Below, in pieces: positions 20,596 through 27,636 of a stretch of DNA of 64,000 nt; within the stretch, counting starts at the first letter, position 1; each line of letters begins with the position of its first letter. The notes below the pieces were generated by a model. That model did not search any database, was not told where the DNA came from, and worked only from the letters and a program-made list of their open reading frames with translations. The position numbers and the translations under genes were made by a program. The stretch covers positions 357,554,001 through 357,618,000 of the forward strand of contig OZ024742.1 of assembly GCA_964016885.1 (NCBI GenBank), given 5' to 3'. The DNA comes from Eledone cirrhosa (taxonomy: Eukaryota).

Positions 20596-21441
20596 TATAG
20601 TAGAATAATCGAGTATCGAAAAATCGGCGCACGAGTTCACGATAAACAAAATTCGAGATGAGCGGCAGAGGGCTCGATAATTCAAATAAATCAGAGCTAT
20701 AACTATCGTTAAAATACCGTCACACGTAGAATATGTCTACAATCAACCAAACAACCGAAAAATTGCGATATGGAAGATTCGGGACACTCAGATAAATTAT
20801 CAATAAATCAATAAATCAAATGAATGTAAAAAGCATACCCGGACCCACTAGAGAGATGGTATATCTAGCTTCTTGGGTTTCTGTAAATCCTTAAACCGTC
20901 CTCTATCAGCTCACATAAAAATATAATACTTACAGACGACGGGGGACTGGAGTTACTTCTTCAACGAGCTTTAGTCCGAACGGATGAAAAGACAAAACCC
21001 AGGCTGAAAATACGCACATGGATTTCAGCAAGGGAGATAACCCTTATATCCGCAAAAAATATTCGGGAAAATGTGGAATAACACATATCGAATAAGAGTG
21101 CTCAATAGACATGTTAAAATAAACAGGAGCTATTCATCATTTAATAGAATCGATAAAAAATGAACAATAAAATTAACTGGTCAATAGCTAGGTCTAGAGC
21201 TAAGTATAGTAGAATAATCGAGTATCGAAAAATCGGCGCACGAGTTCACGATAAACAAAATTCGAGATGAGCGGCAGAGGGCTCCATAATTCAAATAAAT
21301 CAGAGCTATAACTATCGTTAAAATACCGTCACACGTAGAATATGTCTACAATCAACCAAACAACCGAAAAATTGCGATATGGAAGATTCGAGACACTCAG
21401 ATAAATTATCAATAAATCAATAAATCAAATGAATGTAAAAA
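20596..21441 (-). mobile_element. Retrozyme-like module, 609-bp unit, about 1.4 copies, in (TA)n
   Basis: 20596-20831 is repeated at +609. Non-coding; HHR at 20837-20969. Confidence 0.8.
20837..20969 (-). ncRNA. Type I hammerhead with long stems II and III
   Basis: Minus strand: GCTCG-TTGAAGA-A-GTAAcTCC...GGAtTTAC-A-GAAA-CCCA..CTAGA..TCTAG-TGGG-TC-CGGGT. Confidence 0.7.
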
Positions 21442-21476
21442 TATATATATATATATAGGTATATATATATATATAT

Positions 21477-21680
21477 GGCAACATTGAGGACCGAGTAAGT
21501 TAGATTACCGATATAAAAGACACAGAAGCGAGAAGCGAAAACCAACCAAACAGTGAGTGTGTTCTGTTATTAATTCTGGCAATATTACACAAATATGACC
21601 CTCCCCAAGTATAACAATATTTGTTTCGACAGACGATTTCATACAAAAAACCTCGCAAAACTAATTCATCGCCGCTATGG
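21477..21680 (+). mobile_element. 3'-terminal fragment of the PLE family at 53304-54688
   Basis: Near-identical to 54489-54688; flanked by (TA)n. Confidence 0.85.
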
Positions 21681-21725
21681 TATATATATATATATATATA
21701 TATATATATATAGAGAGAGAGAGAG

Positions 21726-22010
21726 ATAATTTAATATATCTACTAACATAAGCGCACAGATGTACGCTAATGCCAGCAAATACACAGGTTATGTCATAGT
21801 ACCTAGGTGGTTCAATGCAGGAGGATGCAGAACAATAATATAAAAGACGTAAAATAAGAAAATAAAAAAAATAAAAAAATAAAAAAAATTAACTTACTTA
21901 AATTTTCACTCCAACTAATTAGTTTCTGCAATGGGATAAAGACAGTTACGTAATGAACTGTTGAGAATTTCATTGCGTCATCAGGGAGATCTATTCTCAG
22001 CCAAGTCTCA
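21726..22010 (-). mobile_element. Partial copy of the 548-bp HHR module (38.5-40.6 kb family), with an internally deleted HHR
   Basis: Matches 38515-38788, including ctccaactaattagtttctgcaatg...cattgcgtcatcagggag. Confidence 0.85.
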
Positions 22011-22185
22011 TATATATATATATATAGGTATATATATATATATATATATATACCTATATATATATATATATACCTATATATATATATATATATATATATA
22101 TATATATATATATATATATATATATATATATATATATATATATATATATATATACCAATATATATATATATATATATATATATAT

Positions 22186-24950: not shown

Positions 24951-25250
24951 GTGTCCGCATGTATCTATGCGTTTCTCAATATATTGTTTATAACTCCCTC
25001 TGGTCGAGTAATCTTTGAAGTGTAGTGACTGCTGGAAAGCTGCCATTACTCATACTTCTCACCTCCTTAACCACCTCTTCTACGGCCTCGATATAAATAC
25101 CCCCTCCGCCTCCGTGGTATTTTTTTCAGGGTTATAAGGGGCTTAGCTTTGTTTCTTGACCGTTGTATCACGTGACTGACTCCCTCTCCGCCTTTTGGGA
25201 TTATATCTCACATCTTATAGACATGTTCTTGAAGCTAGTAAAATGAGGTC

Positions 25251-25340
25251 TCCTCTTGATAAGTCGGCAGACCTCACAAAGGCTCTATATCTCTATGATG
25301 TATTGTTTTTGATTATGCCACAAAACTACGTAGTCGAGGA
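25251..25340 (+). ncRNA. Type I hammerhead, U3-A8 core, G12A (probably inactivated)
   Basis: TCCTC-TTGATAA-GTcGGCA...TGCCAC-AAAA-CTACGTAG-TC-GAGGA. Lies at the end of an insert (about 24950-25410) that runs into (TA)n. Confidence 0.72.
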
Positions 25341-25869
25341 ATCTAGAAGCAGTTTAGGTATGATACATCTTATTACTAATTATATCTAAATGTTTCTTCT
25401 CTCTTCATAATATATATATATATATATACATCTTACGTTAATTATTTTCCATTTTGACATTATAGTCACTTATATGTTATGAAATACTGTTGGCTTCACG
25501 CTCACAATAATTTCTATACTTTCATTTATATATATATATATATATATATAGGTATATATATATATATAAATATATATATATATATATATATATATATATA
25601 TATATATATATATATATATATATATATATATATATATATATATATATATATACATGAGAAGAATGAATACTGCGTGGTTGCACATGAGTTACATATGGTA
25701 AAAATAGTCCTTCATCAGTGATTTTTCAAATATATATATATATATATATATATATATATATATATATATATATATATATATATATATATATATATATATA
25801 TATATATATATTATATATATATATATATATATATATATATATATATATATATATATATATATATAGGTA

Positions 25870-26536
25870 TATATTACTCTTTTACCTGTTTCAACCATCC
25901 GGCTGAGGCCATGCAGGGGCACCGCCCTTGTTGCTACACATTTTATCTCCAGCCTATATAGGTTGGCCACTGGTGTAAGAGGGAATTTGTTGCTGTTGCC
26001 CTTAGGTTTCCCTCGTGCCATGCTGTGGGCTCATCCGGGATCATGGATAGCAAGGTTTCGAGATATTTCTTGAAGACATCCACCTCCACGTCATGCAAAT
26101 CTCTCAGGTCCCTCGGCAGCTTGTTGAAGAGTTGAGGGCCCTTGAATCCCAGGCTATTGCAATACCTGCTCCTTATTCTAGATGTGGAAGACGGGACATT
26201 TGGCACCACAGAGTGTCGTCCTGTTCGACAGTTGGTCCAGCTCCCAATGCCAAAGTTTGGTGCTAGTCCCTCCAGGATTTTCCACAAGTAGATCACTGCG
26301 TATCTCCCGTCTTCATTCCAAGGATAGAGGTTCAGTTCCTTTAGCTTCTACCAGTAGCGTGTTTCCTTCATCGTGGCAATCCTCTTGGTGTAGCTTCGCT
26401 GGATTGCCTCAAGCTCCGTGTTTAGTTTGATACTATGGGGTGACCACAACTGGGAGCAGTAGTCCAGGCGGCTTAGGACAAATGTCCTCCATAGTGTCAA
26501 CATGGGTCTCGGTCTCTTGACCGGAAAGTCTTCAGG
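25870..26536 (-). mobile_element. CR1-like LINE 3' fragment
   Basis: FVLSRLDYCSQLWSP...RYAVIYLWKILEGLAPN...GPQLFNKLP...FKKYLE...PDEP. Confidence 0.8.
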
Positions 26537-26920
26537 ATATATATATATATATATATATATATATATATATATATATATATATAGCTTGAGGACTATATAT
26601 ATATATATATATCTTGAACCACCTAAGAGAACATTAGTCTACGACTTCTTTTATACCATAAACGTGGTTCTGTCTTTGCGTGTAAATGTTTTTCACCGCT
26701 CCTATTAATGACGTATTATATTCGTTTTTTTCCCGTTCTTTGCCAGGGAACTTTTCCACGAACCAAGGTATCGTCTTCCTGTCTTCCTCCGGTTGCAACG
26801 TTTTTTGAAATATCCACTTCTGCCTTTACAGATTGACTTTGTTAGTTTCAGAAGATCCCGTTAAGCGATTCTTTGCTTAAACTTTAATCTGTTATTTTAA
26901 TAAATATATATATATATATA

Positions 26921-27636
26921 TACAAATAAATTATCGAGAATCGGAACTTCGGCCCAGGAAATAACGAAACACAATCTTCGAAATGTGCGGCAAAGTGCTC
27001 AATGCTTCGGATAAACCAGAGCTATAACTAACGTTTAATACCAACACACTGAGATGATGCTTAAACAATCATTCGCACAGCAAAAAATACGACCAAGAAA
27101 ATTCGGGTCAGACAAATAAAAATATATATGAATGAAAAATTTACCCGGACCCCCTGGAAAGATGGTAAATTCCAGCATTTGGGTTTCTGCGGCTCCTAAA
27201 TGAGTTACCGTCAGCCTACATAAAGAATATCCGGCATCTGGTAAGAAGATGAACAAGGAAGTCACTTTTTCAGCAGGCGTTTAGTTCAATAATAATACAG
27301 GGGAAGACCGTTACTAAATCCACGTGGGGACCAGCAAGGGAGGGAACCCCTATATTAGGCGAATGAATTCAGTTGTGTATATTATTGTAAGAATACAAAA
27401 TATCACAAATCGAATTAGAGTTCTCAACAGACGGGTTAAAATTAACATGAGCTATTCATCAGTCAATAGGATCAACTAAAAAATCAATAAAATTAACTGA
27501 TCAATAGCTAGAGACTGGAGATAAATACAAATAAATTATCGAGAATCGGAACTTCGGCCCACGAAATAACGAAACACAATCTTCGAAATGTGCGGCAAAG
27601 TGCTCAATGGTTCGGATAAACCAGAGCTATAACTAT
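26921..27636 (-). mobile_element. Retrozyme-like module, 605-bp unit, about 1.2 copies; diverged relative of 20596-21441
   Basis: 26921-27033 is repeated at +605. HHR at 27143-27278 (GCCTG-CTGAAAA-A-GTGAC...GCCGC-A-GAAA-CCC...GGG-TC-CGGGT). Confidence 0.8.

Follow-up and report, generated by a model that had tools for sequence, protein, structure and literature searches.

In the current study, a 64,000-nucleotide (nt) stretch of Eledone cirrhosa DNA (contig OZ024742.1; hereafter the window), consisting of repeat-rich animal DNA with abundant (TA)n tracts, was found to harbour two non-coding elements, termed A and B, which are laid out as non-LTR retrozymes (LTR, long terminal repeat) mobilised by a Penelope-like element (PLE). 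Each is predicted to carry a large type I hammerhead ribozyme fold, the catalytic centre of which looks impaired in both copies, and it is the mobile-element context that explains these motifs. The reading that we prefer, with moderate confidence, is that A and B represent two subfamilies of a non-coding retrozyme copied in a Penelope-like manner, that their weak cores were inherited from the source elements, and that a slow or vestigial ribozyme left their spread unhindered. This reading is built on an established layout, a shared 3' end, many relatives, the hammerhead sequence and helices, and the potential of these to fold. The two elements are positioned in the window as follows:

20600 to 21441, minus strand: element A, 842 base pairs (bp), a 609-bp non-coding unit plus 233 bp (1.38 head-to-tail copies), flanked by (TA)n tracts.
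26923 to 27633, minus strand: element B, 711 bp, a 605-bp non-coding unit plus approximately 106 bp (1.18 head-to-tail copies), in (TA)n.
27644 to 27657, plus strand: inverted stub of B, 14 nt at the B 5' end, beyond (TA)5, a Penelope-type 5' inversion.

The two diverged modules of 605/609 bp proposed in an initial annotation of this DNA were thus recovered as repeat periods of 609 and 605 bp, the units being 68.7% identical over 735 columns. No open reading frame (ORF) of at least 120 amino acids overlaps either element, and a tRNA search using ARAGORN found nothing. The repeat arms differ at 2 of 233 positions in A (20600-20832 and 21209-21441) and at 2 of 108 in B. Both units share a common 3' end point, at which TAT(A) forms a microhomology with the (TA)n target and which is located 242 nt (A) and 225 nt (B) downstream of the predicted cut site, and their 5' ends are not alike. 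A distance of 10 nt separates the 5' end of A from the place at which the next cut is projected, as expected for an RNA 5' end made by the ribozyme; the 5' end of B, 120 nt away, does not fit this expectation. A profile built from A and B also matches 27642-27660 on the plus strand, i.e. over the inverted stub. A fixed 3' end, a variable 5' end, a partial tandem, a 5' inversion (in B) and a microsatellite target are therefore all present, and each insertion within the window contains one hammerhead, not the array of two or more by which a non-LTR retrozyme is recognised.

Concerning the relatives of these elements, one A unit was used as the reference for 4 of 13 listed public sequencing runs, and matches were obtained in all four (4676 and 3740 reads, 534 and 11 contigs). 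Matching reads are mostly 90-99% alike, most being 5-10% different from A; the head-to-tail joint of the unit is crossed by 195 and 147 reads, while 519 and 495 reads continue into a diverged unit end. These thousands of reads, hundreds of contigs and joint-crossing reads, from runs of two other samples, show the unit A family to be large, diverse and dispersed, and a second organism carries it too. No RNA data set was among the holders listed by the run search, which is no argument as to expression, and runs with a share below 0.2 that had not been aligned were disregarded. Read ends at 20653, 20679, 20764, 21091 and 21174 probably reflect AATT-like sites of reduced-representation libraries and were not considered biological.

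The hammerheads of A and B, and that of a third element, C, are composed as follows:

20969 to 20837, minus strand: hammerhead A, 133 nt, type I, GCUCG-UUGAAGA-A-(stem II)-A-GAAAC-(stem III)-GUC-CGGGU.
Parts of hammerhead A, minus strand: stem I GCUCG/CGGGU; core U3-U4-G5-A6-A7-G8-A9 at 20964-20958; extra A at 20957; stem II at 20956-20883; extra A at 20882; GAAAC at 20881-20877; helix III; GUC; predicted cut after 20842.
27278 to 27143, minus strand: hammerhead B, 136 nt, GCCUG-CUGAAAA-A...A-GAAAC...GUC-CGGGU.
Parts of hammerhead B, minus strand: core C3-U4-G5-A6-A7-A8-A9 at 27273-27267; G12 at 27187; predicted cut after 27148.
49240 to 49643, minus strand: element C, a 404-bp 5'-truncated insertion between (TA)n tracts.
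49622 to 49448, minus strand: hammerhead C, 175 nt, GACUUG-CUGAAGA-A...A-GGAAC...AUC-CGGGUC; predicted cut after 49454.

The initial annotation had placed three motifs of 130-175 nt at these positions, and their location (all on the minus strand), their lengths, their core readings (UUGAAGA, CUGAAAA and CUGAAGA) and the retention of GAAAC..GUC-CGGGU in A and B, with the close variant GGAAC..AUC-CGGGU in C, were all borne out. Its estimate of 75-80 nt for the stem II domain holds for A (76 nt) and B (79 nt) and fails for C (62 nt). In both A and B, stem I comprises 5 bp including wobbles, stem II begins with G-C (G10.1-C11.1) and is flanked by one additional A on each side, helix III consists of 3-4 bp plus a distal 6-bp helix, and GAAA, the A15.1-U16.1 pair and an NUH triplet are present (GAAAC, GUC). 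As regards a possible loop 1-loop 2 tertiary contact, no canonical loop 2 is present; beyond its first 8 bp, stem II opens into an internal loop in A, B and C. Since the pairwise alignment of A and B is out of register in helix III, helices were tabulated directly. The third base pair of stem II is A-U in A and C and G-C in B, both sides having changed, and the compensated CTAGA/TCTAG to CTGGA/TCCAG change that had been reported for stem III was verified in the distal helix III (CUAGA/UCUAG to CUGGA/UCCAG), where it amounts to an A-U to G-C change between A and B. Among the listed differences between A and other copies (40 of 157), 4 of the 4 within 20837-20889 are at unpaired places (17 of these 53 positions being unpaired; P ~0.008). 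Internal CUGAU/CUGAC sequences in stem II were considered as the true core and dismissed, as they have no stem I partner. The prediction of large type I hammerhead folds in A and B is thus supported by their sequence, by helix covariation, by their placement within a Penelope-like repeat and by the intact cores of sister families.

With regard to the core itself, a Watson-Crick pair between positions 3 and 8 (CUGANGA) is present in C and absent from A (U3.G8) and B (C3.A8). The description of these as reciprocal C3/G8 changes is apt as far as the letters go; they are two separate single substitutions, each of which breaks the Watson-Crick 3-8 pair, and no compensation is involved. C3-G8 is a Watson-Crick pair in the active hammerhead fold (PMC3884650) and U3-A8 a natural covariant (PMC4209133; PMC3088659). 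As cores of both types occur in the window, either could be ancestral, and C3-G8 is favoured because C and two families of the same build, E and H (listed below), carry it. In a full mutational scan of one hammerhead, single changes in the 3/8 region gave low activity and only a G-C swap rescued it (PMC9901934); by analogy, cleavage by A and B should be slow.

It may be that the source copies possess an ordinary active core (C3-G8 or U3-A8) and that decay or faulty copying has altered the individual copies A, B and C, an explanation that we regard as rather less probable. All core changes are transitions, C keeps C3-G8, and the Watson-Crick 3-8 pair is kept in 23 of 24 other hammerhead copies listed for the window, many of which are arms of one palindrome and hence not independent; moreover, with most reads 5-10% off A, this copy is not the family consensus. 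Set against this, the repeat arms have barely diverged (0.4% and 0.9%), so that decay after insertion is unlikely and the core changes probably derive from the source elements. Assuming that the arms have not been homogenised, the joint chance of post-insertion hits in both A and B is 0.0002 (upper 0.002) for position 3 or 8; when all 13 positions of the core are allowed, it rises to 0.006 (upper 0.07). Furthermore, position 20964 is spanned by approximately 45 and 34 raw reads, almost every one of which differs from A at 20992 and so represents another copy or allele, and among the 40 listed of 157 differences none is a change at 20964 (back to C) or at 20959, though neighbouring places at similar depth are listed. 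This hints that U3.G8 is common to other copies, although the reads may come from few loci and end close by. Adenosine-to-inosine editing was discarded as an origin of G8 or G13, there being no strand excess of the matching change among the listed differences.

Folding analysis revealed that stems I (5-6 bp), II and III are all able to form in A, B and C. The three-way junction anticipated in the initial annotation is the unconstrained minimum-energy fold of the A motif (taken at the limits given there) and not that of B. The stem II domain of A folds at z -4.8 on the minus strand against -1.4 on the opposite strand, and the circular units of A and B, each compared with only 12 shuffles, fold at z -3.1 and -4.4 on the minus strand, the A unit giving an equal z on the opposite strand. 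The hammerhead region of B, at z -0.3, does not fold better than its shuffles. One constrained energy calculated for C forces a C-A pair and was disregarded.

A quite different interpretation, to which we attach very little probability, is that the motif is not a hammerhead and that an alternative hairpin is conserved instead, G and U being the partners of positions 3 and 8 in it and the variation at these two positions being neutral. The helix in question would be formed as follows:

20909 to 20969, minus strand: alternative helix of A, GCUCGU/GUGAGC, which would sequester stem I and position 3.
27278-27273 with 27219-27214, minus strand: alternative helix of B, GCCUGC/GUAGGC.

When A and B are folded as a consensus, this helix is selected and the two variable positions are both paired, and the helix also occurs in the minimum-energy fold of B. 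Its covariation, comprising two compensated pairs between A and B, is within chance, given that 23 of 60 column shuffles had such a helix under a slightly stricter filter; it also leaves unexplained the invariant CAGAAACCC and GGGUCCGGGU, the compensations in stems II and III, element C, and the intact-core families E and H.

Several observations nevertheless weigh against the preferred reading of A and B as retrozymes with source-inherited weak cores. In B the junction is approximately 9 kcal/mol worse than the minimum-energy fold, and shuffled sequences fold as well as its stem II domain does (z +0.6). Conservation within the unit is highest outside the hammerhead; between A and B it peaks at 21076 to 21207, minus strand (21-27 of every 30 columns), a segment that lies directly after the fixed 3' end position and is a candidate recognition structure for the helper enzyme. 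Read depth falls approximately 50-fold over 20936-20998, where most family copies are too diverged to align, and homogenised repeat arms could make A and B older than they appear. Finally, no sequence link was found between A/B and the terminal repeats of the two ORF-bearing Penelope-like elements of the window.

That such motifs would be missed by standard searches, as had been foreseen, was supported in that Rfam yielded no match on A at E<=10, 14 matches over B and 3 over C, none of them to a hammerhead family; as a control, a compact hammerhead at 55111-55173 was found weakly by Rfam HH9 (E 0.03). Rfam microRNA matches were rejected as (TA)n and palindrome artefacts below gathering scores, and no hammerhead was among the 150 listed of 273. 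A descriptor written once the motifs had been seen hit the window nine times, at A, B and C and at six copies of an unrelated family, compared to 0.007 per shuffled window (300 shuffles), while a looser descriptor found 12 cores compared to 0-3 in 8 shuffles. Pattern scans for relatives returned two metagenome matches, both unrelated according to blastn and reading, and none in viral contigs or prokaryote genomes. One metagenome contig (L002:1-760) is an unrelated tandem repeat of approximately 180 bp, matching by chance. A scan elsewhere for the same build gave 7 + 3 loci, in none of which are stems I and III convincingly closed (2 of the 10 have a 4-bp stem I and a 1-bp helix III).

Element C was originally counted as a third relative in the 605/609-bp family, which could not be upheld: it has no repeat and no blastn match to A or B, and its 3' tail resembles theirs no better than shuffles do (z 0.4 and 1.2). 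What the A+B profile recognises in C is confined to 46 nt about its core (E 0.003), and likeness beyond this stretch and CCGGGU is at shuffle level, although a short tail stretch lines up by eye. We therefore take C to be either a family of its own or a very distant relative. Its hammerhead combines a canonical CUGAAGA core with A13G (GGAAC), AUC and the lack of a 15.2-16.2 pair; the stem II base is a perfect 8 bp, and helix III is a 90-nt domain with an 18-bp hairpin (z -6.3 on the minus strand, -2.1 on the opposite).

The two further families of the same build, which are unrelated to A/B yet possess C3-G8 cores, are:

21900-22002 (minus), 38679-38781 (minus), 39330-39432 (plus), 39879-39981 (plus), 40424-40526 (plus), 55960-56060 (minus) and 56675-56775 (plus): family E, seven hammerheads.
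34280-34415 (minus) and 36406-36541 (plus): family H, CUGAUGA core (C3-G8), two copies that are the arms of one large perfect inverted repeat.

Family E has a 50-nt stem II domain with an extra base on both sides, a palindromic loop 3 and CUGAUGA in 6 of 7 copies, and its stem II base is compensated between two subfamilies; judged by these features it is the best candidate for an active example of the large-stem build. In family H the stem II domain is approximately 90 nt (z -3.6 on the hammerhead strand), a second extra A is present and helix III is palindromic.

A long helix III occurs only in A, B and C, each of which has a changed core, whereas the seven other listed families have a short, mostly palindromic one. 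This association, together with a priming site downstream of the cut site, would suit the idea that weak cores are selected: a hammerhead with a stable long helix III would cut as a monomer and remove the priming site, so that damped lineages or templates would be those yielding more-than-unit insertions, core damping replacing the dimer dependence of ordinary PLE hammerheads. Predicted competing pairings for stem I in A (0.94) and C (0.98) and the covarying alternative helix in A/B point in the same direction. We consider this improbable, as there are three cases only, a short-helix family has a fixed A13C (3 of 3 copies), the downstream competitor is weak in B (0.04), the alternative helix is at shuffle level, and a circular template would make damping unnecessary. 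It is likewise doubtful that there exists a retrozyme class with large monomer-competent hammerheads whose damped cores (U3.G8, C3.A8, G13) are fixed in active lineages and delay template cutting. Were damping to hold, part of the RNA would stay uncut, or in a closed circle, long enough for reverse transcription past the ribozyme, and the motifs would count as natural hammerheads with a tuned rate that evolved independently, belonging to a large and hidden set with long stems and an extra base on either side of stem II that standard searches miss.

Returning to the preferred reading of source-inherited weak cores, a tandem source would be transcribed and its RNA cut after GUC by the large type I hammerhead, following which the unit may be ligated to a circle by a host ligase, as suggested by related systems (PMC7229834; 10.64898/2026.07.22.740005; PMC6765202). 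Insertion into (TA)n would fall to a Penelope-like element, probably of the Neptune type, through its reverse transcriptase/GIY-YIG endonuclease, with target-primed reverse transcription beginning at the fixed site 225-242 nt downstream of the cut and running through the cut site. The template of each copy would be a ligated circle or an RNA with its inner hammerhead uncut: because priming occurs downstream of the cut, a cut linear monomer would give only approximately 240 nt, and copies of 1.2-1.4 units need one or the other. As priming past the cut site thus needs a circular or uncut template, a weak core would be harmless or even useful. U3.G8 and C3.A8 would each be a single substitution that arose independently, most likely out of C3-G8, and that the source lineages already carried, and the resulting slow or vestigial ribozyme would not have stopped the spread of the element. 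A dispensable ribozyme is in keeping with the finding that no cleavage was seen in 8 of the 9 dimer elements tested (10.64898/2026.07.22.740005) and that Naiad elements spread without canonical hammerheads (PMC8557442).

The Penelope-like elements of the window and their minimal hammerheads are:

41122-46498, minus strand: Penelope-like element with 515-bp terminal repeats.
42360 to 44714, minus strand: its intact ORF, 784 amino acids, with reverse transcriptase, CX4CXXC linker and GIY-YIG.
27745-31567, minus strand: second Penelope-like element, frameshifted, similar to the first at 64% and bearing an inverted 5' copy.
27814 to 27853, minus strand: minimal hammerhead with a natural U3-A8 core, in a terminal repeat of the second, broken element.
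Near 31460-31500, plus strand: minimal U3-A8 hammerhead of the second element.

The intact ORF is, by analogy, a candidate for the kind of helper that A and B would require; named relatives of its protein are found in bivalves and in bins of bivalve symbionts, which marks the host as mollusc-like. An overlapping upstream frame (44645-46012, 455 codons) has no Pfam match and weak atlas leads (0.77, mollusc clusters). U3-A8 cores occur in five copies in the terminal repeats of both ORF-bearing elements, and in those of the 41122-46498 element the hammerhead has GCAA for GAAA in 3 of 3 copies, one of which is at 57610-57680.

A number of other repeats were observed in the window. Hammerheads are borne by three further repeat families, one at 58816-59667 (minus strand; 483-bp unit, two intact motifs), one at 51631-53084 and 54881-55183 (compact motifs, U.U at the stem II base) and one at 36730-37321 and 40608-40927 (GA-loop type). 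Long near-perfect palindromes (34248-36573, 36730-37321, 38511-39601, 48615-48953 and 55920-56819) may be Penelope-type inverted insertions or assembly fold-backs. A repeat family with a 141-bp period (6837-7267 and 26615-26904) adjoins (TA)n, and the descriptors used found no hammerhead in it; at 582-3318 a 48-bp unit is repeated 57 times, and each of the two strands contains long open frames.

In common with metazoan non-LTR retrozymes (PMC7229834; 10.64898/2026.07.22.740005), A and B have a low-GC non-coding tandem unit with one type I hammerhead per unit, a unit length inside the range of 51-972 bp given in 10.64898/2026.07.22.740005 and co-occurrence with Penelope-like elements. They differ in comprising only 1.2-1.4 units with one hammerhead per insertion, where the published definition of 'active' needs two, in motifs of 133-175 nt in this window as opposed to compact ones, and in the non-Watson-Crick 3-8 combination of A and B. 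With the hammerheads of PLE terminal repeats (PMC4209133) they share type I topology, a short stem I, an extra base after A9 and G10.1-C11.1, and the U3-A8 covariant known from Schistosoma in that source also occurs in this window. Here, however, helix III is long and non-palindromic (36-90 nt domain), the stem II domain measures 62-79 nt, a further unpartnered A is inserted between 11.1 and G12, and positions 3 and 8 are unpaired or form a wobble; the available part of the same source reports a large helix III for fungal and protist elements and not for metazoan ones. Partial tandems, an inverted 5'-truncated copy and (TA)n targets are shared with Neptune-clade Penelope-like elements, and the window ORF carries the Neptune-type CX2-5CxxC linker (PMC8557442), whereas A, B and C are non-coding and have no detectable sequence in common with the two ORF-bearing elements. 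Among natural core variants (PMC3088659, available part), core insertions and a stem II base mismatch are tolerated in some cases, and U3-A8 covariation is reported, unlike a fixed U3.G8 or C3.A8. Neither this build nor a 3-8 core with a fixed non-Watson-Crick combination was found in the published work searched (PMC6155905 included), a search outside which most of the subscription literature lay, and the supplements of PMC4209133 and PMC3088659 may show similar variants.

The kind of element described here is already known, while its large-stem hammerhead build is a new variety. With a stem II of 50-90 nt that has an extra base on either flank, and with a long helix III, this build widens the range of retrozymes and of hammerheads of the PLE type. 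Rfam and published descriptors do not catch it and one window holds four families of it, so that hammerhead counts in such genomes are probably too low. Should A and B be decayed copies, they would represent an ordinary retrozyme with an unusual periphery; should weak cores be fixed in active lineages, these elements would provide a direct test of whether the ribozyme is needed and of how cutting of the template is prevented.

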